From: a virus
Lineage: Duplodnaviria > Caudoviricetes
Reading direction: 5' to 3' (one strand)
DNA: 64,000 nucleotides
Virus record (IMG/VR): IMGVR_UViG_3300014204_000120
Span: 1-64,000 of that record
In this document: one piece after another, positions 5,059-45,493 of the stretch
Numbering within the stretch: position 1 is the first letter of the stretch
Layout of the letters: every line of letters begins with the position of its first letter
Made by a program: the position numbers and the translations under genes
The notes under the pieces: generated by a model
The model's database searches: none
Told to the model about the DNA's origin: nothing
Seen by the model: only the letters and a program-made list of their open reading frames with translations

Positions 5059-5089
5059 TAGAAGTTAAATTTAGTAGTTAGATTTAAAA

Positions 5090-5123
5090 GGGTCAAGAGG
5101 ATTAATTTCCTCTTGACTTTTTT
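5090..5123 (+). terminator. Rho-independent terminator after the capsid gene
   Basis: GGGTCAAGAGG / CCTCTTGACTT stem followed by a T-tract. Confidence 0.85.
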
Positions 5124-5142
5124 ATTTGGAATATGTTAGATT
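5113..5142 (+). promoter_or_regulatory. Putative sigma70-type promoter overlapping the terminator
   Basis: TTGACT-18 nt-(TG)nTAGATT upstream of the endonuclease RBS AAAGGA. Confidence 0.45.
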
Positions 5143-5162
5143 ATTAATAGAAAGGAATTATT

Positions 5163-6836
5163 ATGATTTGTTCAATATGTGGATATACAAATGATTCTAA
5201 TAGATCATTTGCTAAACATATCAAAAAGCATAATATATCTATTAAAGAGTATTATGATAAGTTTTTGAAAACAGAAACTGATGGTATATGTATTTGTGGT
5301 AAAAAAACTAATTTTAAGAATATAGTTAAAGGATATTTTAGATATTGTTCATTAAAGTGTTCAGCTAATAGTGAAAAAACTATAAAGATTAGAAAAGAAA
5401 CTACAAAGAATAGATATGGTGATGAAAATTATAGAAATGTAGAAGCTAGTAAAAATGTATGGAATTCTAAGAGCGCTGAAGAAGTTAATGATATAGTTGA
5501 TAAACGTCGCCAAACTAAAGCTATTTTATATGGTAATGAAAAGTTTAATAATAGAGAAAAATCTATTGAAACTTGTAAAAATCGTTATGGTGTTAATCAT
5601 TTTACAAATAGAGATTTAGCTAAAAAAACATGTTTAGAAAAATATGGTGTAGATAATCCTTTTGCGGCAGAACAAGTTAAAAATGATATAAAACAGCATT
5701 GGGAATCGTTGGGTGTAACTCATCCAATGCATTTAAAATCAATTAAAAACAAAGTAACAAAAAACAGATTATTACATTATAAAAATAATTTAATTAATTT
5801 TATAGGTGATCAATTTGAAGTTTTAGATTATTTGGGTGAAAATGATATACATTTGAAGTGTAAAGAATGTAATAAGGATTTTTGGATACAGAAGCAGTTA
5901 ATATTATTTAGGTTAGAAAATAAAATAACACCGTGTTTACATTGTGTTAAATACGGAAGTATATCAAACAATGAAAATAATTTATTAAGTTATATTAAAA
6001 CAATTTATAGTGGTGAAATAATTGAAAATAGTAGAAAGATTATAGAGCCATATGAATTAGATATTTATTTACCAGAACTGAAGTTAGCATTTGAGTACGA
6101 TGGGTTATATTGGCATAATGAGAATTTTGTTAATAATAGTTATCATTTAAATAAAACTGAGTTGTGTGAAAAATTAGGTATACAATTAATACATATTTAT
6201 GAAGATGATTGGATTTATAATAATAGTATAGTTAAGTCTAGAATTTTAAATTTATTGAATAAGGTTACTAGAAAGATATATGCTAGAGAATGTGTTGTAA
6301 AGGAAGTTAGTTCCATTGAATCAAATAATTTTTTAAAAGACAATCATTTACAAGGTATATGTAATGCTAAAATACGATTAGGATTGTGGTATGATGAAGA
6401 ATTGGTTTCATTGATGACTTTTAGTGGATATAGAAAGAATTTGGGTAAAGTTAAAGAAACTAATTGTTATGAGTTATTAAGATTTTGTAGTAAATTAGAA
6501 ACAGTTGTTGTTGGAGGATCGAATAAATTATTTAAACATTTTATTAACACATATAGTCCTGATAAAGTTATAAGTTATGCCGATCGTAGTTGGTCTTCAT
6601 TATTAAAAAGTAATGTATATTTAAAAATGGGATTTAATTTTATTAGAAATACAGATATTAATTATTACTATATATTAAGAGATAGACGAGTTAATAGATT
6701 CAAATATAGAAAAAGTGAGTTGATTAAAGAAGGATTTGATAGTAAAAAGTCTGAAAAAACAATAATGTTAGAAAGAAAGATATATAGAATATATAATAGC
6801 GGTAATTTACTATTTGAATGGACTAAAACAGACTAA
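5163..6836 (+). CDS. Free-standing homing-endonuclease-like protein (Zn ribbons, KYGV-type repeats, PD-(D/E)XK domain)
   Basis: CxxC motifs, TCLEKYGVDNPF repeats, ELDIYLPELKLAFEYDGLYWH, C-terminal ISYADRSWS domain. Confidence 0.75.
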   Translation: MICSICGYTNDSNRSFAKHIKKHNISIKEYYDKFLKTETDGICICGKKTNFKNIVKGYFRYCSLKCSANSEKTIKIRKETTKNRYGDENYRNVEASKNVWNSKSAEEVNDIVDKRRQTKAILYGNEKFNNREKSIETCKNRYGVNHFTNRDLAKKTCLEKYGVDNPFAAEQVKNDIKQHWESLGVTHPMHLKSIKNKVTKNRLLHYKNNLINFIGDQFEVLDYLGENDIHLKCKECNKDFWIQKQLILFRLENKITPCLHCVKYGSISNNENNLLSYIKTIYSGEIIENSRKIIEPYELDIYLPELKLAFEYDGLYWHNENFVNNSYHLNKTELCEKLGIQLIHIYEDDWIYNNSIVKSRILNLLNKVTRKIYARECVVKEVSSIESNNFLKDNHLQGICNAKIRLGLWYDEELVSLMTFSGYRKNLGKVKETNCYELLRFCSKLETVVVGGSNKLFKHFINTYSPDKVISYADRSWSSLLKSNVYLKMGFNFIRNTDINYYYILRDRRVNRFKYRKSELIKEGFDSKKSEKTIMLERKIYRIYNSGNLLFEWTKTD

Positions 6837-12582: not shown

Positions 12583-15500
12583 ATGTTTGAAGGAAATAAA
12601 TCATTAAGAAAAGCTGGTGAAAAAATTAATTATACTCAAGATATGGTTAATGAAATAGTTAAATGTAAATCTGATATAATTTATTTTGCAGAAAAATATT
12701 ATACTATTGTAACTATTGACGGTGGTAAACAAAATATTGCATTGTGGAATTGGCAGAAAAAAGTATTGAAAGCTTATATGAATCCTCCTAATAATAAAAA
12801 GAATATTATTTTGAAGATTGCTAGACAGAGTGGAAAATGTGTTTATATAGACAGTATTGTAAGAATTAGAAATAAGAGAAATGATGAAATTAAAGAAATT
12901 AAAATAGGAGATTTTTATAAAATACCAAATCATAAAAAAATAAAACCAATTGATAATAAGTTTATTGAATCTTTTGAAGTTGAAGAATGGGAAGTTGAGA
13001 CAAATTCAGGTTGGAAAGATATAACTCATATTCATAAAACTATTAAATTTGATATCTGGGAAGTAATTACAGAAAAATGTAGTTTAAAATGTGCTGATGA
13101 TCATATAGTAATGATTAATGATTTTAAGCAAAAGTTTGTTAAAGATTTAATTGTTGGGGTTGATAAAGTTATTACTAAAAATGGATTGGAAAAAGTAACA
13201 TTAGTTCAAAAGTTAGATATAGAACCACAAGAAATGTATGATATAACCGTAAAATCAGATACTCATACACTATATACAAATAATATATTATCTCATAATA
13301 CTACAATCACAACTATATTTTTATTATGGTATGTTTTATTTAATAAAGATAAGACAGCAGCTATAATGGCAAACAAAGAAGCTTTATCAATAGAAATATT
13401 AGATAGAATTAAAATAGCATTAAAATTTATTCCAGTATGGTTACAACAAGGTATAGTTGATTGGAATAAAAAATCAGTAGTGTTAGAAAATGGTAGTCGT
13501 ATTATAGCAGCTGCAACATCAAGCCAATCATTAACAGGGTTTACAATTAATTTACTTTATTTAGATGAATTTGCAAAAGTGCCTCAACATATTGCGGATG
13601 ATTTTATTGCGTCGACTTATCCAGTTATTACTTCTGGTAAAACATCGATGATCATTATGGTATCCACGCCTTTTGGCATGAACCATTTTTATAAATTTTG
13701 GATGGATGCAACTAGAAAGGATAGTAATACAAATAGTTTTTATCCTATAAGTGTAGGATGGTGGGAAGTGCCAGGTCGTGATGAAAATTTTAAAAAGGCT
13801 GTTATTAAAGATATTGGTAGAGTAAAATGGCAACAGGAATATGGAACTCAATTTTTAGGTTCATCATCAACATTAATTGACCCTGATATTTTAGAAAGAA
13901 TAGTATATAAAAATCCAGTAGCAACTAAATGGACTGGTTTATTATTGATATATGAACAGCCTCAAAACGGAATTACTTACGTTTTAGGGGTGGATTCTGG
14001 TAAAGGTACAGGTAGAGATTATTCGGTTATTCAGGTATTGAAAATTATTAACGAGTATAATATTGAACAAGTAGCATTATATAGAAATAATTTTGTTCGA
14101 CCACATGACTTCTCTCAGGTAGTTGTATCAATAGCTCAATTTTTTAATAATGCTTATATAATGATTGAGAATAATGATATAGGTCAATCTGTATGTGATA
14201 ATGTATGGTATGAATTGGAATATGAAAATTTAGTGAATGTTGATATGAAAGGATTGGGAATTAGAAGTACTAAATCATCAAAAAGAAATGCTAATGCTCT
14301 TTTAAAAGAATACGTAGAAAAACATTGGTTAAATATATGTGATGAACGCACTGTTTATGAATTAAGCAGATATGAAGAAGTAAAGCCGAACGTATTTGCT
14401 GCTGGGAAACACGAGCACGACGATTGTTTTAAAGAGGATACATTAATTAAAACCAAAAGAGGATATGTTTCAATTAAAGAAGTAAAAATCGGTGATGAAG
14501 TATTAACGCATAAAGGTAGATGGAAAAAAGTAACTAATTTAATTAAAAAACAATTTAATGGAGATTGGTACGATATTAAATTTAAGGGATTGCTTAACTT
14601 ATCAACTAGTTATAATCATCCAATTTATACAGATGAAAGAAGTTGGGTTATAGCTCAAGATTGGAAAACTCAATCATGTATTTCTGTTAAAATGCCATTA
14701 GAAAAAAATAAAAATAAAGTTTTAAAGTTTGATGATTATGTTGAAGTTAAAAAAATGGGGTATAATATTAATAAATTTGATTTGGTTATGGATTTTAATT
14801 TTGCTAAATTTTTAGGATTATTTTTAGCAGAGGGTTGTTGTGATAGAGTTAAAAGTCATCATTATACGATGTCTATGGCATTTCATATTAAAGAAGTTTA
14901 TCTTATTAATGAAATGTCAGAATATTTAAAAACTATAGGAATTAAATCACATATTTATTATCCAAAAGGAAAAAAAGGATGTTGTTTAACGTTTTCAAGT
15001 AAATTTTTATATACTGTTTTAAGTAAATGTTATGATAAAAATCGTTTTAAAGTTTTACCAGAATATGCTTTTGATTTAGGTGAAGATTTAAAATACGTTT
15101 TAGAGTATTGGCTTAAAGGAGATGGTTGGCATAGTAATGTTAAAAATAAGAATGATCATACTATAGGTGCGTCTATTAGTAAAAAATTAGCTTTAGATAT
15201 GAGAGATATAGCAATTTCTTTGGGTAAAAAAGCTAATATTCAAAAAGTAACTAAAAGAAAAAAAGGCGAAAAAGACCAGTATCATGTGACAGTATATAAT
15301 GATTATAATAAAAATTGTAATAGTCATAGTGTTATACCAATTTCAAATTTTGAAACACTTCATAAATTATCATATAAAAAAGAAAAACCTTTAATACAAA
15401 AAAGTCATTTTGAAGGTACTGTTTATAATATAAGTGTAGAGGAAGACGAAAGTTTTGTATGTGAAGGTATAGTTGTTCATAATTGTGTAACTTCTTTATT

Positions 15501-15696
15501 ATGGTCATTATTTTTTATTAAAACTGAAGAATATGATAGTGGAAACGAAGGTAATAAAACAATAACAGATGAGTATAATGTAGATAAAGGTAATTGGGAT
15601 GAAAAGGATGTAGAAGTTAAGGATGATAAGAAGGATATAGATGGATCTGACGGAAAGGGGGATCCTAATTGGCAGCCTTCAGCAATTTTTGTATGA
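12583..15696 (+). CDS. terL: Terminase large subunit, T4 gp17-like, with two inteins
   Basis: ARQSGK|TT Walker A, LYLDEFA Walker B, VSTPFG, GVDSGKG.GRDYS, HDD|C nuclease motif. Confidence 0.95.
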   Translation: MFEGNKSLRKAGEKINYTQDMVNEIVKCKSDIIYFAEKYYTIVTIDGGKQNIALWNWQKKVLKAYMNPPNNKKNIILKIARQSGKCVYIDSIVRIRNKRNDEIKEIKIGDFYKIPNHKKIKPIDNKFIESFEVEEWEVETNSGWKDITHIHKTIKFDIWEVITEKCSLKCADDHIVMINDFKQKFVKDLIVGVDKVITKNGLEKVTLVQKLDIEPQEMYDITVKSDTHTLYTNNILSHNTTITTIFLLWYVLFNKDKTAAIMANKEALSIEILDRIKIALKFIPVWLQQGIVDWNKKSVVLENGSRIIAAATSSQSLTGFTINLLYLDEFAKVPQHIADDFIASTYPVITSGKTSMIIMVSTPFGMNHFYKFWMDATRKDSNTNSFYPISVGWWEVPGRDENFKKAVIKDIGRVKWQQEYGTQFLGSSSTLIDPDILERIVYKNPVATKWTGLLLIYEQPQNGITYVLGVDSGKGTGRDYSVIQVLKIINEYNIEQVALYRNNFVRPHDFSQVVVSIAQFFNNAYIMIENNDIGQSVCDNVWYELEYENLVNVDMKGLGIRSTKSSKRNANALLKEYVEKHWLNICDERTVYELSRYEEVKPNVFAAGKHEHDDCFKEDTLIKTKRGYVSIKEVKIGDEVLTHKGRWKKVTNLIKKQFNGDWYDIKFKGLLNLSTSYNHPIYTDERSWVIAQDWKTQSCISVKMPLEKNKNKVLKFDDYVEVKKMGYNINKFDLVMDFNFAKFLGLFLAEGCCDRVKSHHYTMSMAFHIKEVYLINEMSEYLKTIGIKSHIYYPKGKKGCCLTFSSKFLYTVLSKCYDKNRFKVLPEYAFDLGEDLKYVLEYWLKGDGWHSNVKNKNDHTIGASISKKLALDMRDIAISLGKKANIQKVTKRKKGEKDQYHVTVYNDYNKNCNSHSVIPISNFETLHKLSYKKEKPLIQKSHFEGTVYNISVEEDESFVCEGIVVHNCVTSLLWSLFFIKTEEYDSGNEGNKTITDEYNVDKGNWDEKDVEVKDDKKDIDGSDGKGDPNWQPSAIFV
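12838..13299 (+). mobile_element. Mini-intein (154 aa) in the terminase Walker A
   Basis: Begins CVYIDS after SGK, contains CADDH block B, ends SHN before T; no LAGLIDADG domain. Confidence 0.9.
14425..15483 (+). mobile_element. Intein (353 aa) with LAGLIDADG endonuclease in the terminase nuclease domain
   Basis: Begins CFKEDT after HDD, contains LGLFLAEG and YWLKGDG motifs, ends VHN before C. Confidence 0.92.
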
Positions 15697-15936: not shown

Positions 15937-15962
15937 TAGAAAATTAATACTTGGAGGAAATA

Positions 15963-17873
15963 ATGGCAAGAGTATTTAAAGCTCCTGGAATAAAAAGAGA
16001 CGAAATTGATTTATCTGAAATATTGATTCCAACTGGCACATCTAATGGTGGTATTGTACTTCGCGCTAAAAGAGGTCCTGTAAATAGACCTGTTTATATT
16101 TCTAATGATAAAGAATTTGTAGAAACATTTGGAGAGCCAATTTATACTTCAGGAACAGATAATACAACAACGAATGGAAAACTAATACCTGAATATGGTT
16201 ATGGTGCTTATGCTGCTTTGGAATTTTTAAAAGAATCAAGTTCCCTTTATGTGGTTAGAGATTATACTACAACTGCTGATACATATGCGTTTGCAAGTTT
16301 TGATAGTAGTTTAAATTATACTATTCAAAGCGCTGGTGTTTCTGGTGATAAATTTGAAAGAGGAAATAGATTAGATACATCTGAATATATTAGTATAATT
16401 GATGAATATGCTGGTGTTGGTGGATCTGGAGCAAGTAAAGTTATTGTTTCTTATGTTGGTCCTGGTGTAGATGGTAATAGCATTGCTGTTACTATTGAAC
16501 CATTTAGTCTTTCTGCTGATTGGAAATTTGCATATGATAATTATCCTTCTTCAGCTCATGCGGCTTCTGCTGCTTCATTAGAAAATGCTGAAATTGAAAG
16601 ATGGTATCCAATAGCAAGTCAAGTATTTAAATTGAATGTGTATACAAAATCTACTGATAAAAACTGGGAAGACTATTTTAAAACCGAAGCTGAAAGAACT
16701 GCTAAAACACTTTATATTTCTCCAACAGAATCATTTTATGGTTCGATTGACGAAGATCTTAAAGACGGTAATAATAATGATCTCTTTATTGAGAATATTG
16801 TCAACGGAGTTTCAAAATACATTTATATAAAGAAAGGTGTTACATTAGCAGTTAATCATTTTGATTATGTTAATAGTGTAAGTGATGTTTCAGCGTTACC
16901 TGATGCAGAAGATACTAACGGCGATACTTATGTTAAATACGATATGACAACAGCCGGTTCTTCAACTAATAGACTAGCTATTCTATCAGGTGGAGCAAGC
17001 AGCCAGAGTAACGGCCTTACTGATACTGCCGGTTGGACAATTTTTGAAGATAGAGAAAACGCAAATGTTAATATCTTAATTGGTACATCATATAGCACAA
17101 CAGTAAAACAAGAAATTGCCAGAATCGCATCAGTTCGTGCAGACTGTATTGCTGTGGTTCCTGCAGGTCAATTAAACCATGATACTGTAGCTGATGTTAA
17201 AGCTACTGAAGAATATGGTTATAGAAGTCCTTCATATGTTGCTATCTATGCGGGATTTTCAAAAGTATATGATAAGTACAATGACAAATATCTATATATA
17301 CCTAATTCAATTTTTGGTGCGGCTTTAATGGCAAGAGTTGATAATGTTGCTAATCCTTGGGATGCTCCTGCCGGTACTAATAGAGGAGTTTTACCTGTAG
17401 TAGATCAAAGAAAAATTTGGACAGAAACGGAAATAGGGGATCTATACGAATACAATATTAATGTACCGAAACTTACTAGAGGTTATGGACATGTCATGTG
17501 GGGAAACCGTACCTCCCAGTTGAAAAAGTCAGCACTTGATAGAATTAACGTGAGAAGAGGTTTACTATATATTGAGAATAATGTTGAGATCGCATTACTA
17601 CCATTTTTATTTGAAAACAATACAGCTAGAACAAGATTACGTGTGTTTAGTGTGGTTGACTCATTTTTAGCATCAGTACAAGCGGCTGGTGGATTAACTT
17701 CATATAAAGTGATCTGTGACGAGACTAATAATAGTAGTACTGTTATAGATTCTAATCAATTAAATGTAGATCTGTACGTGGCCAACGCACGCACGATAGA
17801 GTATATAAAATTGACTACTGTAGTAACACGTACCGGTATTTCATTTGATGAAGTTCAATTAACATCAGTGTAA
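15963..17873 (+). CDS. Tail sheath protein, T4 gp18-like
   Basis: APGI...EIDLS, GPVN.P, PWDAPAG.NRG, SALDRINVRR, FENN..RTR, CDETNN; ATG at 15963 after GGAGG. Confidence 0.95.
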   Translation: MARVFKAPGIKRDEIDLSEILIPTGTSNGGIVLRAKRGPVNRPVYISNDKEFVETFGEPIYTSGTDNTTTNGKLIPEYGYGAYAALEFLKESSSLYVVRDYTTTADTYAFASFDSSLNYTIQSAGVSGDKFERGNRLDTSEYISIIDEYAGVGGSGASKVIVSYVGPGVDGNSIAVTIEPFSLSADWKFAYDNYPSSAHAASAASLENAEIERWYPIASQVFKLNVYTKSTDKNWEDYFKTEAERTAKTLYISPTESFYGSIDEDLKDGNNNDLFIENIVNGVSKYIYIKKGVTLAVNHFDYVNSVSDVSALPDAEDTNGDTYVKYDMTTAGSSTNRLAILSGGASSQSNGLTDTAGWTIFEDRENANVNILIGTSYSTTVKQEIARIASVRADCIAVVPAGQLNHDTVADVKATEEYGYRSPSYVAIYAGFSKVYDKYNDKYLYIPNSIFGAALMARVDNVANPWDAPAGTNRGVLPVVDQRKIWTETEIGDLYEYNINVPKLTRGYGHVMWGNRTSQLKKSALDRINVRRGLLYIENNVEIALLPFLFENNTARTRLRVFSVVDSFLASVQAAGGLTSYKVICDETNNSSTVIDSNQLNVDLYVANARTIEYIKLTTVVTRTGISFDEVQLTSV

Positions 17874-17966: not shown

Positions 17967-19367
17967 ATGTATTGTTATATATGTGATAAAGAAATTAATT
18001 ATCATAAAGCAGTATTCCCACAGTTACATATTGTTAAGCATCATCATATAACTCCAAAAGAGTATTATGATTTATATTTACGTAAAGAAAATGAGGGTGT
18101 ATGTTTGATGTGTGGAAAAGAAACCGAGTTTTTGGGTATTGGTATAACTAAAGGATATAGAAAATGTTGTAGTTCTATTTGTTCGAATAATTATATTGGA
18201 AAGAAAATTAAAACTAAAAAAACATTATTAGAAGTATATGGTGATGAAAAATATGTTAATGTTGATTTAATGAAAAAAACTAATATTAAAAAGTATGGAA
18301 CTGAATGTACATTACATACTGATAATAATAATGAAAAGATGAAAATTTTAAGAAATGCGCAAAGATTTGATAGATTAAGTGAGAAATTAAAAAAATATAA
18401 TATAAGTGTTGTTAATGTAGAAAACGTGCAATTTTATATTTTAAAATGTAATAATTGTAATAATGAATTTAAAATTGGTAAAGATTTATTTTATAATAGA
18501 ATAATTAATAATTATCCTGTTTGTTTAATATGTTATCCCTTGAAACGATCATCTGGCATAGAAGAAGAATTTAGTAAATATATTCAAGAGTTATATTTTG
18601 GTGAAATTATTAGAAATAGTAGAAAAATTATTGTTGGTAAAGAAATTGATATTTATATTCCAGAATTAAAGTTGGCGTTTGAGTTTAATGGGATATATTG
18701 GCATTCTATTTTAAATAAACATAAAAATTATCATAAAAATAAGACTGAGATGTGTGAGAAGTTAGGTATACATTTGATACATATATACGAAGACGATTGG
18801 GCTAATAAACAGAATATTATTAAAAATGAAATTAAAAAATTATTGAAATTGTTTGATAATGTGGAATTTAGTAAAGATGATATAGTTAAAGAAGTTAATA
18901 ATGAAGAAGCGACTATATTTTTAAAAGAGAATAGTTTATATGAAAATGTTTGTGGTAATGTAAATATTGGTTATTTTCATTGTAATCAGTTAGTTGCAAT
19001 TATGATATTTAATAAATTAATTAATAATAAGTATAAGTTATTAAGATGTTGTAATAAGTTAGTTATGAAAAATTATGAGATTGAAAAGAAAATGTTAGAT
19101 TATTTTAAAAATAAGTATAATCCAAATAATATAAATGTGTTAGTTGATAGATCTTGGATTTGTAATGAAATTAACTCATTATATAATGTTTTAGGATTTA
19201 CTTTTGTTTCTAAGACTAAACCGAATCGTTTTTATATAAATACTAATGATATTAGAGAAATAGATAAAAATTCAATTATGAACGATCCCAGTAAGTATAT
19301 ATACGATTCTGGCAATTTAAAATATAGATATGAAGTAGATTTAAATAAGGAGATAAAAAATGTCTAA
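17967..19367 (+). CDS. Homing-endonuclease-like protein, paralogue of 5163-6836
   Basis: EIDIYIPELKLAFEFNGIYWH and KTEMCEKLGIHLIHIYEDDW shared with the 5163 protein. Confidence 0.75.
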   Translation: MYCYICDKEINYHKAVFPQLHIVKHHHITPKEYYDLYLRKENEGVCLMCGKETEFLGIGITKGYRKCCSSICSNNYIGKKIKTKKTLLEVYGDEKYVNVDLMKKTNIKKYGTECTLHTDNNNEKMKILRNAQRFDRLSEKLKKYNISVVNVENVQFYILKCNNCNNEFKIGKDLFYNRIINNYPVCLICYPLKRSSGIEEEFSKYIQELYFGEIIRNSRKIIVGKEIDIYIPELKLAFEFNGIYWHSILNKHKNYHKNKTEMCEKLGIHLIHIYEDDWANKQNIIKNEIKKLLKLFDNVEFSKDDIVKEVNNEEATIFLKENSLYENVCGNVNIGYFHCNQLVAIMIFNKLINNKYKLLRCCNKLVMKNYEIEKKMLDYFKNKYNPNNINVLVDRSWICNEINSLYNVLGFTFVSKTKPNRFYINTNDIREIDKNSIMNDPSKYIYDSGNLKYRYEVDLNKEIKNV

Positions 19368-20671: not shown

Positions 20672-21928
20672 ATGAAAGTACAACGAACCGAAAGACATAT
20701 AATTGTTAAAAATAAATCCTTTGATGAAATTACGTTTTTATCAAAGAACCTATATAATTATTGTAATTATATTCTTCGTCATGTTTATTTTAATAAATTT
20801 GATGAAATACCCGAATATAAACATCTTATTAAATCCTTCAAAATTAAAGATAAAGAATTCTTTAATATTGATCAATATGATCTAATATCAGAACTAACGA
20901 AAAATAATCAAGTAGATTATAGAAAATTACCATCACAAGTAGCTCAACAGATAATTTTGTTATTGTATAAAAATTGGAAAGTGTTTTATAAATCTTTAAA
21001 AGTATTAAGTAAATTAAATGGTAAACCTAAAATGCCTAATTATAAAGATAAAGGAGGTAGAAATGTTGTAATCTTTACGAATCAACAGTGTCGTTTAAAG
21101 TCAGATGGGATGATATATTTTCCTAAAAGCACCAATATTCAGCCGTTGAGTACGAAAGTTAAATCGTTTAATCAGGTTAGGATAGTACCTCAAGCAACGT
21201 GTTATGTTGTAGAAGTAGTATATGAGAAAGAGATCGAAGTTTGTAAGGATTTAAATGATTTATTATATTTAGGAATTGATTTGGGTGTAGATAATTTGGC
21301 TACATGTGTAGATAATATAGGCAATAAACCTTTTATTATAAATGGCAAGATTATTAAATCTATAAATCAATTTTTTAATAAACAGAAATCTGTTCTTCAG
21401 TCTTATATTGGTAATAAAGGAACATCTAATAGAATTAATTCTTTAACGCACAAGAGGAATAATAAAGTTCAAGATTATCTTCATAAGACAAGTAGATACA
21501 TAATTAATTATTGTATTAATAATAAGATTAAAACAATAGTTATAGGTCATAATAATGATTGGAAAAATGAAGTAAATATGTCTAAAAGGAATAATCAGAA
21601 TTTTGTTTATATTCCATTTGCAACATTAATACAGCAAATCCAATATAAAGCAGAAGAAGTTGGAATCTCTGTAATTGAAATGAACGAATCTTATACCTCT
21701 AAATGTGATTCTTTGGCTTTAGAAGAAATTAAAAAACACGAATTTTATATTGGTAAAAGAATAAAAAGGGGTTTATTTCAATCATCTATTGGTAAATTAA
21801 TTAATGCTGATGTAAACGGTGCTTTAAATATTTTAAGAAAAGTAATCCAAGATGGTTTTGTAAAAGACCTATTGGATAAAGGTAATGTGTTTTTGCCAAA
21901 TAGGATTAATCCTATTAAAGTTACCTAA
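20672..21928 (+). mobile_element. tnpB: IS200/IS605-family TnpB RNA-guided nuclease, no tnpA
   Basis: SKNLYNY, LGIDLGVDNLA (RuvC-I), IVIGHN..WK, ESYTSK, NADVNGALNI (RuvC-III). Confidence 0.9.
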
Positions 21929-36564: not shown

Positions 36565-39183
36565 ATGGCAACTAATTTTTTAAAGTACACATCGTTAACT
36601 TATGACTCAATTCTGCAACAAATAACAGATAAGTTTAATTCAGACTCTAGATTTGCTAACTTTAGACAATCTGCTATCGCTTCTCTTATGGCTGAAATAT
36701 TTGCCGGCGTTGCAGACTTAGTTAACTATAATTTAGAAAGACGAGCCGAGGAAGCCTTTTTAGACACAGCCAAACTTAAAAGTTCGGTTATTCTACTTTC
36801 CCGTATGCTTGGTTATGTAATGCAAAGACCAATTCCTGCTTCGGCTACTTTAAAAATTAAATTGAAAGGTGACTTTAGTTCCATTATTAGTACTACAGAT
36901 AAATTACAAATACCTTTACAATCATCATTTAGTTATGGTGGTTATAAATTTATTTTAAAGAAAACACTAATAATTAATCTTTCATCATACGTAGACGCAA
37001 TGATATTAGACGGCGCTGCTTATGAATCAGACTATATTACTGTAGACCAAAATAATGATGCTATTGATATCATTCAAGGCGAAATTAAAGAAAAAGTAAT
37101 TGAAGGATCTACTAACCCTCTAATTGGATCCACATTCCAAGTCTATAAAATTGATGATACAGAATTTAGTAACATGTATGGCTCTGAAGACTACGATAAT
37201 CCTGTTACTAGAATTTGGATAGGCGATAATAAATCAACAGATAACGAATATACAATTGATAGAAGGTCTCTTATAAACTGGGAAGTCATTGAAGCGTTCT
37301 CAGATCAAGAAAATATTAAAGTCGCCGTAGTTAGATCTGCTATTAATGAAGGTGTAGAATTACTTTTTGGTAACGGTAGATATGCTAGTGATGGTGTGAA
37401 CTATACTACATCCGGTGGTGCTATAACTTCATATGATAATTTATACGTTCAATACTTAGCTACTAAAGGTTTTAAAGCTAATCAATCAGGCGTTGTTGAT
37501 AAAAAAGTAACATATAGTGGTAGAGTTTATACTAATACCGGAAAGGATATCACAAACAAAGTTGATTTTTATTTTGCTACTAATATAGTTGGTGGCGCTG
37601 ATGCTGAAAGTCTAGAATCTATTAAGTATAACTCACCAGGAATCTTTGCGGCATTAGATCGATGCGTAACAAAGGATGATTATGTAAACTATTTAAAATC
37701 ATTAACTTCTCCTATTAGTATTAAAAATGCTATTGCTTTTGGAGAAGCTGAAGAACTAAACTCTGATACAGGTCGTGATGCAGTTATTCGCCTATTTAAT
37801 GTAGTCCTATTCTCAGTCTTAGGTCATTTATACCAAGTTAATACTTCACCATATTACTATTATACTAAAGAAAATGGTTTGGATAATAACGTACTAGACT
37901 CAAACTTTAATATAGACGATATATCTTACTGGAACTATTTTAATGTGTTTGTTAAAGGAGATACAGAAAGCCTAACAGCTAACTCCCAAATAGTAAGACA
38001 ACTAAAAGAATATACAACATCAGCATTCCAATATAAAATCTATGGTCACGAAATAGATGATACTACTGGCGCATACTATAGTACAAACTACGGTGAAAAT
38101 TTAACTTTATACATCAGCTATACTACAGACGATTCATCTTATAATACAAGTCTAAGCGCTGATACTTCTATTACTGTTGACGTTAGAAGTTTGTCATCTA
38201 AATCAAACGATACCGACGCAATGGAAACTCTAGCATCTCTAATCCAAACTCAACTATTATTAGTCACCGATACTCGCGGTTCTAACACAACAGAAAATAC
38301 ACACTATAATCAAACGGCATTCCCTAACGTTACTGTTACATACGATTCAACAGATAAAGACCTGACTATAGCTTTTGGACAGAATACACCATGTTATATT
38401 GACGAATTTACTAGCGCTACAGGTGCTTCTGATTTAGGACTAAGAATACTATCAGGAACTGCAGCCGTTGGACCTGACGCAGTACTTGTATCTCTGACTA
38501 ATAACCTAAGTCAGAATATAATCAGCGTGGTAGATAAGTTGGACACAAGAGCGCAAATCACAACCAGACCAATATATCTATCAAGTATTATTGAAAAAAT
38601 TAAAATTACTGGTGTGGTAAAAATAAACAGCCTTTATGATACAGAAACTGAAAGAACTAATTTTTATGATGCAATATACAAATGGGCAGATACAACAGCA
38701 GATTTTAAAATTAATCTTTATAAAAGTTCTGTCATAGAAATTATTGAACAGTTTACATCTGTTAAATATACAAATATAAATTTTGAGGCGGATTATCCTA
38801 CACCAGTTAGTACATCAGCATTTTATATAACGGGTGCTAATAAATGGGTTAATAATGGATTTAGTAATAATGCTCAAAAATTATATGCTTATAATTTAAT
38901 TGATCAAAAGATTAATGATTTTTTGGTAGACGAATCTTTGATAACGAAAAGATATTTTTTGGTAACTTTTGCTAAAAATTTATATAATGCTTTTAAAAAT
39001 TTGGGCGGAAATTATGCTACGTTTGTTGATACCATTAATTTTAATAATCTAATTTCTGATATTAATAAAGATTATATTTATATAATGAGAACTAATATGT
39101 TAGATGACGATGGTAATATTACTGAATATTCACTTCCAAATCAAATAGTACAGTTAATATGTAATTTAAATATTGAGTATTAA
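36565..39183 (+). CDS. Baseplate wedge protein, gp6-like
   Basis: EAFLDTA....SV..L...LGY, FGNG, GGADAES.ESIK.N.P..FA..DRCVT..DY. Confidence 0.9.
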   Translation: MATNFLKYTSLTYDSILQQITDKFNSDSRFANFRQSAIASLMAEIFAGVADLVNYNLERRAEEAFLDTAKLKSSVILLSRMLGYVMQRPIPASATLKIKLKGDFSSIISTTDKLQIPLQSSFSYGGYKFILKKTLIINLSSYVDAMILDGAAYESDYITVDQNNDAIDIIQGEIKEKVIEGSTNPLIGSTFQVYKIDDTEFSNMYGSEDYDNPVTRIWIGDNKSTDNEYTIDRRSLINWEVIEAFSDQENIKVAVVRSAINEGVELLFGNGRYASDGVNYTTSGGAITSYDNLYVQYLATKGFKANQSGVVDKKVTYSGRVYTNTGKDITNKVDFYFATNIVGGADAESLESIKYNSPGIFAALDRCVTKDDYVNYLKSLTSPISIKNAIAFGEAEELNSDTGRDAVIRLFNVVLFSVLGHLYQVNTSPYYYYTKENGLDNNVLDSNFNIDDISYWNYFNVFVKGDTESLTANSQIVRQLKEYTTSAFQYKIYGHEIDDTTGAYYSTNYGENLTLYISYTTDDSSYNTSLSADTSITVDVRSLSSKSNDTDAMETLASLIQTQLLLVTDTRGSNTTENTHYNQTAFPNVTVTYDSTDKDLTIAFGQNTPCYIDEFTSATGASDLGLRILSGTAAVGPDAVLVSLTNNLSQNIISVVDKLDTRAQITTRPIYLSSIIEKIKITGVVKINSLYDTETERTNFYDAIYKWADTTADFKINLYKSSVIEIIEQFTSVKYTNINFEADYPTPVSTSAFYITGANKWVNNGFSNNAQKLYAYNLIDQKINDFLVDESLITKRYFLVTFAKNLYNAFKNLGGNYATFVDTINFNNLISDINKDYIYIMRTNMLDDDGNITEYSLPNQIVQLICNLNIEY

Positions 39184-39199
39184 GATATTTTAATATAAA

Positions 39200-39295
39200 T
39201 AATGGTAGAAAGTTGGGACAGCCACAAATGGTTTTCTAACCCCAATTTAGAATTACCTTCTTTCTACTATTAAAAAACCTTATTGGGAGGTTTTG
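39200..39295 (+). ncRNA. Putative structured cis-regulatory RNA leader, copy 2
   Basis: Same architecture and core as 17874-17966; begins right at late promoter 39194-39201. Confidence 0.65.
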
Positions 39296-40432
39296 ATGTG
39301 TAAAAAATTAACTAAAGAAGAATTTATTGAACGATCAAAAAAAATTCACGGTAATAAATACGATTATAGTTTAGTAGATTATATTAATAATAATACTAAA
39401 GTTAAAATTATTTGTTTAAAATGTAATAAAATATTTGAACAAACACCAAATAATCATTTAAATGGTAAGGGTTGTAAAAAATGTAGAAAAACTAAGCACA
39501 AAATGTCAACAATTGAATTTATTGCAAGAGTAAAAGAGATTTGGGGTGATGTTTATGATTATAATTTGGTAGAATATAATAATTTAAACGATAATATTAA
39601 AATTATATGTAAGATTCATGGAGTGTTTAAACAAAAACCTAAAGATCATCTTAGAGGTTGCGGTTGTAGACAATGTGGTATAGATAAAACTAGAAAATTA
39701 AAAATAATGTCATGGGATGATGTTTTAACAAAGTTTAAAAAAATTTATGGTAATGAATATGATTATAGTGAATCTGTGTATCTTTCAATGAATTATCCGA
39801 TTGCTATAATTTGTAAAAATCATGGAATTTTTTATATGTTGCCTAAATATCATTTACATAATGGTGGATGTCCAAAATGCTCAAGACAAAAAATGATAAT
39901 TACAAAAACCAAAAAAATAGAAAATGTTTTATTAGATTTTCGAAATGTTCATGGTGATAATTATGATTATAGTCAGGTTGAATATATTAATAGTAGAACT
40001 AAAATTAAAATTATATGTAAAAAACACGGGATATTTGAACAAACACCAAACAATCATTTAAGAGGTGAATGTTGTCCTAAATGTAAAATATCATTAGGAG
40101 AAAATAAAATATTAATTTGGTTAAATAAAAATAAAATAAAATTTGAACAGCAGAAAGAATTTGATGGTTGTCAATGTAAATTTAATTTAAAATTTGATTT
40201 TTATTTATCAGATTATAATATCTGTATTGAATATGATGGAGGATTACATTTTAAACCTGTTGAATATTTTGGTGGTGAAGAAGCACACGAAAAAACTAAA
40301 ATGAGAGATCAAATAAAAAATGATTATTGTAAAAATAATAATATTAAACTATTTAGGATACCATATTGGAAATTTAATGATATAAATTATATTTTAAAGA
40401 ATATAATAGAAGAAGCAAAAAACTTTTTTTGA
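39296..40432 (+). CDS. Homing-endonuclease-like protein (four YDYS.V.Y...KIIC..HG.F.Q.P..HL.G.GC..C repeats plus Vsr-like domain), related to 11668-12570
   Basis: Repeats visible; FDFYL.DYN.CIEYDG.LHF...YFGG...KTKMRD shared with 11668. Confidence 0.78.
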   Translation: MCKKLTKEEFIERSKKIHGNKYDYSLVDYINNNTKVKIICLKCNKIFEQTPNNHLNGKGCKKCRKTKHKMSTIEFIARVKEIWGDVYDYNLVEYNNLNDNIKIICKIHGVFKQKPKDHLRGCGCRQCGIDKTRKLKIMSWDDVLTKFKKIYGNEYDYSESVYLSMNYPIAIICKNHGIFYMLPKYHLHNGGCPKCSRQKMIITKTKKIENVLLDFRNVHGDNYDYSQVEYINSRTKIKIICKKHGIFEQTPNNHLRGECCPKCKISLGENKILIWLNKNKIKFEQQKEFDGCQCKFNLKFDFYLSDYNICIEYDGGLHFKPVEYFGGEEAHEKTKMRDQIKNDYCKNNNIKLFRIPYWKFNDINYILKNIIEEAKNFF

Positions 40433-41015: not shown

Positions 41016-41041
41016 GGTCAAAAATCAGAAAAAATCAATTG

Positions 41042-41375
41042 CAGTCCGTCCGCGCACGTGTGGAGTTTACCTCAGTTGAATCAAATAAAACTTCAGTCGT
41101 TGCAGTCCGTCCGCGCACGTGTGGAGTTTACTGTTTTATGTCTAGTACCCAAATTGCCAGATACAGTCCGTCCGCGCATGTGTGGAGTTTACGACAATAG
41201 AGCTGATGGTGTGTTGGAAAAAGACAGTCCGTCCGCGCATGTGTGGAGTTTACAAATTAACTTGTCATATTAAAAACAATAAAGGCAGTCCGTCCGCGCA
41301 TGTGTGGAGTTTACCAAAATCATAATAACTATTGAATTGGTCAAACCAGTCCGTCCGCGCATGTGTGGAGTTTAC
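41042..41375. CRISPR. CRISPR array: 6 repeats of 29 bp, 5 spacers of 32 bp
   Basis: Repeat CAGTCCGTCCGCGCA(T/C)GTGTGGAGTTTAC at 41042, 41103, 41164, 41225, 41286, 41347; exact 61-bp period; unique spacers. Confidence 0.97.
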
Positions 41376-41605
41376 ACCAACCAGTTGTGGCGGAGTTTTA
41401 AAAATTCCACTATGTGTTGTATTTAAAGATATTTAAATAAAACGGTGCGGGTTAGTGAGTGGTATAATTAACCAATCAAATTAAGATTTGGTGAAGCTAA
41501 AATTATCCCTCACCTTTTGGCTAAGGACCTTAGCCAAGGCAATTAAATTAATAATTACCTATTCAAATATTTTATTAAAATGTCAAAGAACAATATATCA
41601 TCTAT
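41376..41605 (-). ncRNA. Putative tracrRNA/leader RNA between the cas12f-like gene and the array
   Basis: Own TGTTATATT extended -10 (41610-41618), hairpins TTGGCTAAG/CTTAGCCAA and GGTGAGG/CTTCACC, partial repeat similarity at 41387-41410. Confidence 0.55.
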
Positions 41606-41627
41606 TAATAATATAACATCTTCTTTT

Positions 41628-42917
41628 TTATAAATCAATGTTTGTTGAATTTGCAATATTAATAGCAGCATTTAAATCAGCGTTAATTTCATTGTTACAG
41701 TGTTTACATATAAACTTATCTTGAGAAAGACGATTATCTTTATCCACATATCCGCATTTAGAGCATGTTTGACTGGTATAAGCCGCTTTGATTGTAACAA
41801 CTTTTACGCCTTCTTTTTCAGCTTTATAAGTTATCATGCTTTGTAGTTGATAATATGGCCAGTGCATGAGAAGCATTGGTTTATTTTTAGAGATACCTGA
41901 TAGATTTTCAATTTTAATAATACCAGCATTGTTTTTGATTGCATAATTAATGATTTGTTTGCTAATGAAGTGATTATAACTGGTATGGAAATTAGATATA
42001 TTATTTCTTAGTCTATTTAGATTTTTCAGTTTCTTTTTTCTACCATGCCCTCCGCCAGCTCTGGCTATGCTTTTTTGTAATGATTTTCTGCGGTTATATA
42101 ATTGTATAGATGTTTTAATGTAATCTTCTTTGTTTCCAATAAAAATAGGATTTTCAGAGTTTTGTAAAGCACAAACGGCAGGATTAACCATACCTAAATC
42201 TACACCAACAACAATGTTTGAATCTAAATTATGTTCTTTAATTTTTTCAGATATAACTAGATTAAAAAATAAATCATTGTCTTTGAGTTGAATAGTAGAT
42301 GCACATGTTTTAATTTGAGAAATGTCATTAATATTTTCGTTTTCAATAATTTTATCAACAGTGTGTTTAATATTGGCAGGATCTTTACCAAATAATATAC
42401 CAAATTTTATAATTTCACCTTTTTTTATGTGCCAATTAAAATAATACTTATCATTTGTTTTTTCTAATTTAATAGATATTTGCGTTACTGGTAATGGCAT
42501 ATTTGCTTTAAATGAAGTTATTGATTTTTTTCCAATTTTAATTTCTCTAAAGTCACTTTTATATTTTTTATATACTGATGTTTTTAGTGTATTGGTTATA
42601 CTGGGTGGTAAATTAGGATACTTAGCTTTGACGTCGTGTTCGAATTGGGCTTCATCTTTAATACCAAAATGTTCAAAGAATTTTTCGCGTATTTTATTAA
42701 CTTCGTCTTTATCTTTTATATCAACATCATGTCGTGCTAATAATCGCTCCATCCATTGTTCATTAAATATAATTCCACCAATTATATAATTAGCAGCTCT
42801 AAACGAGTCATTAAATAATTGATATAATCGTTTCCATTGGGCATCCTTTTCCTCTTTAGAATCAGTTGCAACAAACAGTTTTAGTTTTAATACTCTGGTA
42901 TGCATTCCTTCAGTCAT
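41628..42917 (-). CDS. cas12f: Compact Cas12f-like (TnpB-derived type V) nuclease, about 429 aa
   Basis: VGVDLG (RuvC-I D), IKIENL (RuvC-II E), CSKCG..CKHC zinc finger, NADLNAAINIA (RuvC-III D); KKYKS..REI..G..SI.SFK...PL resembles Cas12f1 proteins as I recall them; ATG 42917 after GAAAGGA; adjacent array. Confidence 0.8.
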   Translation of the reverse strand: MTEGMHTRVLKLKLFVATDSKEEKDAQWKRLYQLFNDSFRAANYIIGGIIFNEQWMERLLARHDVDIKDKDEVNKIREKFFEHFGIKDEAQFEHDVKAKYPNLPPSITNTLKTSVYKKYKSDFREIKIGKKSITSFKANMPLPVTQISIKLEKTNDKYYFNWHIKKGEIIKFGILFGKDPANIKHTVDKIIENENINDISQIKTCASTIQLKDNDLFFNLVISEKIKEHNLDSNIVVGVDLGMVNPAVCALQNSENPIFIGNKEDYIKTSIQLYNRRKSLQKSIARAGGGHGRKKKLKNLNRLRNNISNFHTSYNHFISKQIINYAIKNNAGIIKIENLSGISKNKPMLLMHWPYYQLQSMITYKAEKEGVKVVTIKAAYTSQTCSKCGYVDKDNRLSQDKFICKHCNNEINADLNAAINIANSTNIDL

Positions 42918-43117
42918 AATATATCCTTTCAATAAATGTTAATATTAATATAACATTTTCTTTTTAAGAAGTTGTTTAATATTTCAAAAATATAAATACT
43001 TAGTGAGTTTATTCAAAGATATTTTAAATAATTCTTAGTTTAAGACTTTATAGAATATAATCATATCACATTGTTAAATCCGTTATAAATACGTATATAG
43101 TTGTATAGGAGAAGTAA

Positions 43118-45493
43118 ATGTCAAAGTATTATGTAAAAATTAGTAATGCGTATGTATCAACAGGATTAGGAAGCACGTTTTCCCCGTTTACGTTTACACA
43201 GTTTGTAGACAGGTTATCATCAACTACGGTTTCTGATGAGTATTATGTTTCTGGAACGAGGATAATCAACACAGATTTATTAATGACAATTAGTGGTGCT
43301 ACATGTGTAATCAGTGCTTGGGGAGAGGATCCATATTACATTGTAGGTAATAGTGCTGATATATATTTTGCTATTGGGTCAAACAGTTTAAACATATATG
43401 ATATGATATTGGGATGCACATTATCAACAACGACTGAAGTTTTATTTGATTCGACTGAGGATGAAGCTAGGTCACAGAATTTAGTTATAGATAATTGTTA
43501 TATAAATTTAACTACGTATAATATTGGTTTTGAGGATTTTAATAGTGTAATAGTACGGAATTCTAATTTAGTTGCAGATAAAATAATAGGTCAGAACATA
43601 GTTAGTATGTCGTTTGTTAATGATATATTTGATGTTAGTGATATAGATTGTACAGAAGATAATGATGTTGATGTATTCACTTTGGATAATTGTGCGTTTA
43701 CAAGTGCTACGGCTGGATTTACAACGGATGATACAGATTGGACTAATGTACAGGAATTATGGGCAAGACCAGATGATATATTTAATGCAAGTGTTTCAGC
43801 AATTTCAGCTGATAGTTTTCATTATTTAAGTGCTGATTTTGGAACAATTACAATAAGTGGAGATACTGATTATACAAACACATGGTATAATGGAAGACGA
43901 GATGGTATAGGAAGTTTATATTTTCCAGCATTAAGTGGTGTAAGTGTTTCAGCATCGTTAGTATCAGCTGCACCAAATACAACCATTAGTTTTGTTTTGA
44001 GTGGTAATAATCCTTTTACAGTTTTTAGTGCAACGAGTGCTACATATTATTTTGATGATGAAAATACGTCCGCGGTAAATACAAATAGTACATTAGCGCA
44101 TATATATTCGGCTACAGATTATTATAATACTAGTGCTGTTATGATTTCTAAAAATAGTTGGTATACAGTTACAACACCAGTCCAAGTTATATTAGTAGGA
44201 GCATTTACAGTTATAATAAAGGTATATGATGCTTTTGGAAATGATAAGACTGGTGGAGTATTAAGACCTTTATCATATGTATCAGTTTCAGCAAGTGCTA
44301 ATGGATATGATGGTATAGATAGTTATGTATGGGATTTTGGAGATGCTACTGGTAGTGTTCCAGTTTCAGGTATAACTAATCCTGATAATACATATTATAT
44401 TGGATTAGGAATGAAGACTATATCTTTAACTGCTCATGCTGTAGAAGAAACATTCTCTGCAACAGCAAATACAACATTAGGAATATCAGCTTTAACAAGT
44501 GCTTATTATGTTAATATAACTTCAGCTTATGATGCTAATACTGGTAATATAGGAACATTAGCTGATCCATATAATTGGGATGAATTTAAAACTAGAGTTG
44601 AATCGTTTGTAAGTGCAGATTATAGTGATACATATTATTTAAGTGGAAGTAGAAAATTAACACAACCTACAACAGGTCAAAATGTATTAGCTATAAATTC
44701 GTTGAAAAATTTAACTATTGACTGTTGGGAGAATTCAGCAACGCATGGAGCTCCTTGGTTGCTTGAAATAGAAGACTGGACAACGACAAATGCTAATTCG
44801 ATATTATCGGCAGTCGGAACAACATTAAAGAATGGTATAATTTATAATAAGAGATATATTTCTCCTGGTTATGGTGGAACATTAAAGATAACTAATGTAT
44901 ATGATATGTTTATAGTTTATCAAGGTACATATGCTGGAATAGAAATAGACCCTTGGAACTTTGTATTATATTGTGGTGGTACATGTGGTGTAGTAATGCC
45001 AAGTGCGGATTCAAATATTATAGGAAGTACTTTATATTTAAGTGGAAATGGATTTACTGATAATTTTGTTGTAGGAGATTATTCAGAAATATATTTACCA
45101 GCGACTCAACAAACAGGATATAATTTAGATTTAATAGATTCTGTTTTTGTTAATTTAGATTTAGAAGATTCTAATTATTTCAGTGCTGCTGATGTATATA
45201 TTAGAAATAGTACTTTTAATAGAGCTTCTAGTGCTATTGAAGCAGATTTTGATATATCAGCTAATGATGATAGTCAGTTTGGTTGGTCTCCACCCGTTAG
45301 TTATCCGTTTACACCAAGTCATAGGTTATATGATAAAAATATAGAGTATGTGATATTAAAGAAGGGAGACTTAGTACCGTTTAGTGATATTGATATGCCG
45401 CCTAATCCGGGCTATGGAGCTTCGGCATATTCTGAATATGATACTGGCTTGTGGGGTTATGCTAGAAATCAATATAATACAAGTGCGAGTTAA
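43118..45493 (+). CDS. Virion structural protein with two beta-helix-like modules and PKD-like domains
   Basis: YYV...G.G....P(F/Y)...F module twice; SYVWDFGD PKD motif; late promoter upstream. Confidence 0.65.
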   Translation: MSKYYVKISNAYVSTGLGSTFSPFTFTQFVDRLSSTTVSDEYYVSGTRIINTDLLMTISGATCVISAWGEDPYYIVGNSADIYFAIGSNSLNIYDMILGCTLSTTTEVLFDSTEDEARSQNLVIDNCYINLTTYNIGFEDFNSVIVRNSNLVADKIIGQNIVSMSFVNDIFDVSDIDCTEDNDVDVFTLDNCAFTSATAGFTTDDTDWTNVQELWARPDDIFNASVSAISADSFHYLSADFGTITISGDTDYTNTWYNGRRDGIGSLYFPALSGVSVSASLVSAAPNTTISFVLSGNNPFTVFSATSATYYFDDENTSAVNTNSTLAHIYSATDYYNTSAVMISKNSWYTVTTPVQVILVGAFTVIIKVYDAFGNDKTGGVLRPLSYVSVSASANGYDGIDSYVWDFGDATGSVPVSGITNPDNTYYIGLGMKTISLTAHAVEETFSATANTTLGISALTSAYYVNITSAYDANTGNIGTLADPYNWDEFKTRVESFVSADYSDTYYLSGSRKLTQPTTGQNVLAINSLKNLTIDCWENSATHGAPWLLEIEDWTTTNANSILSAVGTTLKNGIIYNKRYISPGYGGTLKITNVYDMFIVYQGTYAGIEIDPWNFVLYCGGTCGVVMPSADSNIIGSTLYLSGNGFTDNFVVGDYSEIYLPATQQTGYNLDLIDSVFVNLDLEDSNYFSAADVYIRNSTFNRASSAIEADFDISANDDSQFGWSPPVSYPFTPSHRLYDKNIEYVILKKGDLVPFSDIDMPPNPGYGASAYSEYDTGLWGYARNQYNTSAS

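Follow-up and report, generated by a model that had tools for sequence, protein, structure and literature searches.

A phage-borne Cas12f1-family nuclease beside a predicted tracrRNA-like scaffold and a type I-E-style CRISPR array

The locus and the closest described systems

The characterised type V-F1 loci carry short palindromic repeats that are clustered and regularly interspaced (CRISPR), of about 36–37 nt, whereas 29-nt repeats separated by 32-nt spacers form the geometry of type I-E arrays. At positions 41042–42917 of the stretch considered here, a window of 64,000 nt that makes up the first 64 kb of the 137,849-bp IMG/VR virus record IMGVR_UViG_3300014204_000120 (Duplodnaviria; Caudoviricetes), the gene of a Cas12f-like effector stands next to an array of the second geometry, with a structured non-coding stretch between the two. 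The locus probably amounts to a CRISPR unit, type V-F-like, phage-borne and complete in itself, in which a Cas12f1-family nuclease is combined with a scaffold resembling a trans-activating CRISPR RNA (tracrRNA) and with a type I-E-style array, and the unit is apparently functional. Effector, structured RNA and array had already been taken for a phage-carried unit in an earlier interpretation of the same letters (hereafter the sequence-only reading), and the portal, major head, terminase, sheath and baseplate genes around them bear this out.

With type V-F1 Cas12f1, whose structures include CnCas12f1 (PDB 8HR5) and AsCas12f (8J12, 7WJU, 8DZJ), the locus shares the size of the effector (429 vs 415–508 aa), its domain order, RuvC triad, zinc finger and full-length fold, the placement of a tracrRNA-like scaffold between gene and array, an array that adjoins the effector gene in an association conserved among relatives, and the lack of adaptation genes, the last in the manner of V-U3-type loci. 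It differs from that type in its 29-nt repeats and 32-nt spacers of type I-E style, in a fixed distance from scaffold to array and in being borne by a phage.

A second parallel is offered by Cas12r of the Thermus Lalka phages (bioRxiv 10.64898/2026.04.20.719267), which is likewise a phage-encoded, TnpB-derived effector with 29-bp repeats (spacers of 31–33 nt) and no adaptation genes. Its spacers are added on the gene-proximal side and are directed at rival mobile elements, and the use of a host type I-E Cas1-Cas2 has been put forward for it. Its published description sets it apart from the present locus, as Cas12r has 564 aa, no tracrRNA and 15 bp between gene and array, against 429 aa, a 252-nt scaffold and membership of the Cas12f1 family here; two Thermus phage records occur among the tblastn matches, ranked below the best 40. 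The plasmid type IV-A3 systems (bioRxiv 10.1101/2023.06.23.546257) are also carried by mobile elements without an adaptation module, have been shown to acquire their spacers in trans and serve in conflict between elements, but with a class 1, multi-subunit plasmid effector in place of the single phage nuclease found here.

The effector and its clade

The effector gene is defined as follows (coordinates, here and below, are those of the window).

41628..42917, minus strand: cas12f-like effector gene, 429 aa, called from an open reading frame (ORF) beginning at ATG, profiles, a PDB search and the predicted fold

A purine run resembling a Shine–Dalgarno sequence lies 9 nt upstream of the ATG, and the product matches Pfam Cas12f1-like TNB (PF07282, 2.9e-24) and OrfB_IS605 (PF01385) as well as NCBIfam guided_TnpB (186 bits). 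In a phmmer search of PDB its best match is CnCas12f1 (8HR5, E 3.8e-55), followed by Al3Cas12f, AsCas12f (~1e-44), OsCas12f, RhCas12f and SpCas12f1 down to 3.2e-41, then by Un1Cas12f at ~1e-24 and LaTranC at 2.6e-4, with ISDra2 TnpB absent among the matches listed; the identities of the matched Cas12f entries are confirmed by their descriptions (PMC13186708, PMC12259090). The RuvC residues D240, E337 and D414 and the zinc-finger residues C385, C388, C404 and C407 do not vary between the effector and its nine closest homologues when these are aligned, and they line up with those of CnCas12f1 and AsCas12f, which agrees with the RuvC protein of about 429 aa, with three acidic residues and a zinc finger, of the sequence-only reading. 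An AlphaFold2 model of the effector (predicted local distance difference test, pLDDT, 82.4) was compared by Foldseek and gave full-length template modelling (TM) scores of 0.73–0.77 with CnCas12f1 and AsCas12f, against 0.56 with ISDra2 TnpB (8H1J), 0.54 with Cas12p and 0.47 with LaTranC.

By sequence and predicted fold, the effector is a member of the Cas12f1 family with an intact catalytic site, and the PDB ranking, the TM scores and the invariant residues argue for this and against a separate offshoot of TnpB. The independent TnpB-to-Cas12 intermediate that had first been proposed was given up on these grounds (8HR5 at 3.8e-55; TM 0.73–0.77 vs 0.56 for TnpB) and on that of a shared tracrRNA core. 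It has to be noted that the family placement comes from phmmer and Foldseek. In a FastTree of 109 relatives the effector sits on a long branch.

The closest database homologues of the effector are 38–42% identical to it, and its clade, of 10 rows in that tree, has a Shimodaira–Hasegawa (SH)-like support of 99. All clade members with usable flanks have the same scaffold beside 29-nt repeats with 32-nt spacers. In one of them (P0009, contigs L019–21) five such repeats and their spacers lie downstream on the gene strand, and an identical protein is accompanied by wholly different spacers in L019 and L021, which come from different samples; such arrays therefore turn over. At least 11 repeats of 29 nt with 32-nt spacers are present on a contig of a Phycisphaerae bin (L102), whereas in P0003 (L182) and P0008 (L010) the same scaffold is found with a two-repeat mini-array upstream of the gene, and P0004 (L016–17) has an array of the same style, also upstream. 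The contigs of P0006 that extend past the scaffold (L012–14, all three) stop within a 29-nt stretch of that type, as they would if assembly had broken at an array.

The sequence-only reading had named homologues never standing beside arrays as the outcome that would speak against it; what was found is that the clade, and also most relatives beyond it (30–46% identity, on viral contigs and in bacterial bins), adjoin arrays, those outside the clade having mostly repeats of ~36 nt and spacers of ~30 nt. A contig of 1277 bp from JGI sample 3300037067 (L184), which ends inside the scaffold, is 95% identical to window positions 41513–42789, and a close relative of the cassette thus circulates in another metagenome. 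The clade is conserved and, as far as found, undescribed.

As a separate observation, the more distant relatives L118 (on a Clostridioides difficile chromosome), L059–L062, L068, L070–L072 and L112 lie between arrays with repeats of 29–32 nt. These resemble class 1 repeats of the host, type I-B-like in C. difficile and type I-C-like elsewhere, and an array matched to the repeat type of the host may be a general habit of the effector's family.

That the effector is instead a TnpB- or TranC-like element still moving as an IS200/IS605-like unit, an evolutionary intermediate to which the array is incidental, is unlikely. Such an element would account for a 322-aa Y1 transposase gene (4201–5169, opposite strand) that lies ~600 bp from the scaffold and mini-array (5781–5980) of the clade member P0008 (L010), and some clade members may still be transposon-linked. 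It would also suit P0004 (L016), in which scaffold, anti-repeat and half-repeat make up a continuous guide like an omega RNA, the last two forming one continuous hairpin with a possible fixed guide after it (L016:1617–1680), while a separate array of 4–5 repeats lies upstream (L016:15–228), as well as the assignment of the effector by NCBIfam only to the general guided_TnpB subfamily. This joined-plus-split arrangement of guides within one clade recalls the RNA-splitting model for TranC (LaTranC, PDB 9JFO/9JFQ) and the omega RNA of TnpB. To both of these, however, the protein is related only distantly, the Cas12f1 nucleases being far nearer than either ISDra2 TnpB or LaTranC, and the tracrRNA core described below is common to many array-bearing relatives and to a clade of nuclease-dead Cas12f (dCas12f). 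Furthermore, IS200/IS605 TnpB, of the obligate mobile element-guided activity (OMEGA) type, lies with TnpA or between transposon ends and has an omega RNA that overlaps the 3' end of its ORF and bears one fixed guide, whereas here the scaffold lies outside the ORF, beginning after the stop codon, and leads to six repeats, with no TnpA; Y1 transposase and serine recombinase profiles gave zero matches in the whole 137.8-kb record, and no transposon ends were seen.

Scaffold, array and spacer acquisition

The features of the predicted scaffold and array, in order along the gene strand, are given here together with a direct repeat that brackets the effector ORF.

42940..42970, minus strand: 31-nt direct repeat, upstream copy, 23–53 nt before the start codon, with a weak sigma-70-like match nearby
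41638-41610, minus strand: promoter-like site heading the scaffold/array unit
41603..41633, minus strand: 31-nt direct repeat, second copy, overlapping the effector stop codon
41517..41536, minus strand: 5' hairpin of the tracrRNA-like scaffold, kept throughout the clade; three of its pairs covary
41454..41514, minus strand: long-range scaffold stem (arms 41506-41514 and 41454-41463), enclosing an extra stem-loop insert here
41445..41451, minus strand: predicted anti-repeat, pairing with repeat nucleotides 14–21 in the six-locus alignment
41399..41410, minus strand: candidate second anti-repeat, to repeat nucleotides 1–11, seen in no more than three or four of the six loci
41376..41398, minus strand: leader-proximal segment, with the 5-nt motif TTGGT (gene strand, 41376-41380) touching repeat 1
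41042..41375, minus strand (gene strand): CRISPR array of six 29-nt repeats and five 32-nt spacers, leader end at 41375

Between the effector stop codon and the array lies a non-coding stretch of 252 nt (41376–41627) that is free of ORFs, and a 170-nt core of it folds with z = −3.2 relative to shuffles, in keeping with the ~250 nt of structured non-coding DNA recognised at the outset; no Rfam family matches the locus up to E = 1. Six loci were aligned from the hairpin through the end of repeat 1, with three helices. In this alignment 90.9% of the cells of the structure are paired, as opposed to 36–46% when the partners are slid by 1–3 columns, and the covariation score of 0.294 (0.185 in shuffles) is reached by none of 500 shuffles, while pairing in the predicted 8-bp anti-repeat helix reaches 91.5%, one of the changes there being compensatory and four one-sided. 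Hairpin and first repeat are 105–106 nt apart in four loci and 162 nt apart in this phage, the increase being due to the extra stem-loop. The motifs of the stem arms recur in the relatives with 36-nt repeats and in the dCas12f loci of Weeksellaceae described in PMC12259090, which argues that the scaffold represents the tracrRNA core of the family. The non-coding stretch is therefore best described, from its predicted structure, as a tracrRNA-like scaffold. The two 31-nt copies, identical at 26 of 31 positions, occur nowhere else in the record at such similarity; the upstream one may act as a promoter, and the arrangement fits two transcription units, one for the effector gene and one for scaffold and array.

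The repeats of the array start at 41042, 41103, 41164, 41225, 41286 and 41347, with a period of 61, exactly the six 29-bp repeats and five 32-bp spacers that the sequence-only reading had counted, and the array is the sole one in the record. Four of the repeats are identical, and the two at low coordinates share one C/T variant against them. The family-wide layout, the predicted anti-repeat, the 5-nt motif at repeat 1 and the variant repeats at the far end all indicate that the gene strand is the one transcribed, with a leader from 41376 onward. The motif directly abuts repeat 1 in this phage and in three relatives. An apparent truncated seventh repeat (41381–41400) is better read as part of the conserved leader-end segment.

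When held against the features of a type I-E array, the geometry fits, but neither a stable gene-strand stem (−2.4 kcal/mol) nor cas genes are found, so that of the type I-E layout with a palindromic repeat, as originally claimed, the layout stands and the palindrome is weak in this phage. In relatives the repeats have their better fold on the gene strand and a clearer likeness to type I-E, that of this phage being the most diverged, with 16–18 of 29 positions in common with theirs. In a distant phage relative (L063/L064) the repeats have a strong central stem (−16.1 kcal/mol) and a sequence style that appears to be that of type I-E. The 29+32 geometry is also given for type I-E in Thermus (bioRxiv 10.64898/2026.04.20.719267), and IMG/VR, when searched with the repeat, gave no match.

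The Pfam profiles of Cas1, Cas2 and Cas4 had zero matches in the whole 137.8-kb record, which by the CheckV estimate is ~53% complete; the sequence-only reading had noted the lack of these genes in the window, and it thus extends to the record. A host type I-E Cas1-Cas2 is a plausible agent for filling the array, as suggested by a spacer length that does not vary, a conserved leader end, spacer turnover in P0009 and the missing adaptation genes. The idea of acquisition by the host type I-E machinery is not new, having been proposed for phage Cas12r, which belongs to another lineage (bioRxiv 10.64898/2026.04.20.719267), and a related one has been published for plasmid type IV-A3 (bioRxiv 10.1101/2023.06.23.546257).

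If the array were an orphan mini-array served by a type I-E Cascade of the host, the neighbouring TnpB-like gene would be selfish, unrelated to the array and supplied with an omega RNA of its own, a combination that we regard as very unlikely. The 29+32 layout without cas genes is what such a mini-array would look like, and mobile nucleases do accumulate in this phage, three homing endonucleases and a further, unrelated TnpB-like gene among them. Against this, the I-E-like array travels with effector and scaffold across a clade at ~40% identity, in unrelated contexts and at a fixed spacing, the predicted anti-repeat changes along with the repeat, the gene-strand stem that an enzyme of the Cas6e type would need is lost in this repeat, and there is no transposase in the record.

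Spacer target, phage setting and significance

The features that bear on the target and on the position of the cassette are the following.

41071..41102, minus strand: spacer 1, leader-distal and oldest, with a 31/32 match to 43428-43459
43428..43459, plus strand: protospacer in a 791-aa virion gene (43118-45493); the adjoining 5' base, 43427, is A in this phage
41018..43049, no strand assigned: cassette as a replaceable island, from the comparison of flanks with related phages L185 and L186
40987-41015, minus strand: promoter-like site of a 170-aa minus-strand gene, at the left junction of the island, strong (11/12 matches)

Spacer 1, which is the oldest because it is leader-distal, has its match ~500 bp from the start of the effector gene. 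A metagenome scan with the prefix of this spacer found two related phage contigs (L185 and L186), whose flanks are 81–99% identical to the window. In L186 positions 41018–43106 of the window are replaced by 376 bp with a 72-aa zinc-ribbon ORF, and the promoter-like motif of the left junction is doubled (3725–3745 and 4020–4040) so as to flank this small ORF on both sides, while in L185 the place of the cassette is taken by a DNA methyltransferase and a 420-aa gene; with different contents at the same position, the cassette is seen to be a replaceable island. Both contigs keep the protospacer; its immediate 5' neighbour on the guide-identical strand is G in them as opposed to A here, one of two phage-specific differences in the 85 nt compared. 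The mismatch of spacer 1, at position 26, is common to all three genomes and falls outside the ~20-nt region used by guides of the Cas12f type. Since G at −1 is required by a type I-E-style or Cas12r-style flanking motif (bioRxiv 10.64898/2026.04.20.719267) and the carrier has A, the carrier may be protected by the change of the motif with the relatives still cleavable. Type V-F1 nucleases act as asymmetric homodimers on a single guide RNA and cleave double-stranded DNA in dependence on a 5' motif, and the G/A difference is the one hint of such behaviour here.

A target at this distance is expected by chance at ~0.5% per spacer (about 1.2 kb of an estimated 260 kb), and such proximity of the protospacer to the cassette is thus unlikely to be accidental. 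The self-match, together with the missing cassette in the relatives, suggests kin exclusion or homing, and as at least one spacer matches related phages, the sequence-only reading was borne out in proposing competing phages as the targets. For spacers 2–5, exact prefixes of 23–25 nt had no match in IMG/VR, nor was there a match in the phage's own 137.8 kb with up to 8 mismatches; the array compared with the phage collection in distant mode gave only chance-level matches (E = 4), and the spacers of relatives matched only their own arrays among all contigs gathered in this analysis. The guanine-plus-cytosine (GC) content of the spacers (0.19–0.41) is like that of the phage, and spacers 2–5 fit low-GC targets such as related phages.

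In the mechanism that we propose for the phage-borne type V-F-like unit, scaffold and array would be transcribed from the promoter at the end of the effector gene, and the anti-repeat would pair with the centre of each 29-nt repeat, leaving the last 8 nt of the repeat to lead into the spacer. The complex of Cas12f and guide would then cut double-stranded DNA beside a 5' flanking motif, and new spacers would be inserted at the scaffold-proximal end by the Cas1-Cas2 of a host type I-E system, as suggested by repeats of type I-E length, spacing and, in relatives, sequence style. The targets would be low-GC DNA, the one identified being a conserved virion gene beside the cassette site in cassette-free relatives. 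In view of that target, the role of the unit would be competition with co-infecting relatives, possibly along with the copying of the cassette into them.

Several points weigh against the unit as proposed. As to orientation, the repeat folds at −6.0 kcal/mol on the opposite strand and at −2.4 on the gene strand, and this slightly better folding on the plus strand is the only contrary signal. The energy of the duplex between scaffold and repeat is no better than with shuffled repeats, and the covariation support comes from six sequences only. Cas1 was not detectable in the metagenome-assembled genome of L102, the only relative in a cellular bin, and the repeat of that relative occurs only on its own contig. 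Lastly, the argument from the flanking motif involves one site and two relatives, and four of the five spacers have no match. A decaying, non-functional relic, in which the self-matching spacer reflects accidental self-acquisition and subsequent escape, would explain the short array, a repeat that is the most diverged of its clade (16–18/29 shared), the long branch of the effector and the mismatch of spacer 1 to every known target, but is highly improbable in view of an intact ORF with all catalytic and zinc residues, four of six repeats identical, scaffold helices that are kept and a 95%-identical gene copy in another sample (L184).

The source phage is, judging from its gene content, a large T4-like myovirus, with a GC content of 29% over the record. 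Its structural genes in the window, assigned by PHROGs, are these.

14-1891: portal
3697-5058: major head protein
12583-15696, plus strand: large terminase
15951-17873: tail sheath
36565-39183: baseplate wedge

Nearly all phage genes are on the plus strand, and the Cas12f cassette is one of the few minus-strand islands. Three HNH/homing-endonuclease genes (5163–6836, 17967–19367 and 39293–40432, plus strand) follow, as insertions, the genes for the major head protein, the tail sheath and the baseplate, respectively, the last of them just upstream of the Cas12f island, and in the related phage L186 this nearest one has a longer, different version (501 aa). The second TnpB-family gene (20672–21928, plus strand; 418 aa, NCBIfam guided_TnpB 191 bits) encodes a protein that is only 28% identical to the Cas12f-like one and, in a pairwise alignment, apparently lacks the CxxC zinc finger; no array adjoins it. 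At 1037 aa, the ORF of the large terminase is of unusual length, and its profile matches fall on widely separated parts of the protein, suggestive of the insertion of, for instance, an intein or a nuclease. No match was found when the phage collection was searched with the locus DNA at near identity, and no relative of the 791-aa neighbour protein was found in IMG/VR.

Free-standing homing endonucleases of T4-like phages, and TnpB in the retention of its transposon, follow a known pattern in which the nuclease gene is lodged among conserved genes and the site that it targets, in genomes without it, is a few hundred bp away. The present locus resembles them in having a nearby target in cassette-free genomes and a carrier copy altered at a critical base, with the difference that its specificity would come from a CRISPR spacer instead of the protein or a fixed guide. 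Tentatively, and as a possibility that we would not yet call probable, the oldest spacer may guide Cas12f to the virion gene of cassette-free relatives, the carrier being protected at the −1 base, and repair from the carrier would spread the cassette, the whole clade having re-fitted its tracrRNA to type I-E-style repeats so as to use the adaptation enzymes of hosts. Accidental self-acquisition followed by escape gives a similar picture, and the evidence for homing, consisting of one spacer and two relatives, is thin.

The type V-F-like unit would mean that arrays of class 1 style can serve a class 2 family of effectors, Cas12f1, and this in a whole conserved clade, found on phages as well as on other contigs, rather than in one isolated case. 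It would provide, beside Cas12r, a second and independent case in favour of a dependence of phage CRISPR units that lack adaptation genes on the type I-E integrase of the host, and the clade would hold natural examples of a tracrRNA re-matched to a foreign repeat. With 429 aa and an intact active site, the effector is among the smallest array-linked nucleases, and an ordinary candidate to be tried as an editor. A spacer directed against a neighbour gene of cassette-free relatives makes CRISPR-guided phage homing directly testable, and if homing is true, a CRISPR spacer would have assumed the role that the fixed guide of TnpB plays in the retention of transposons.

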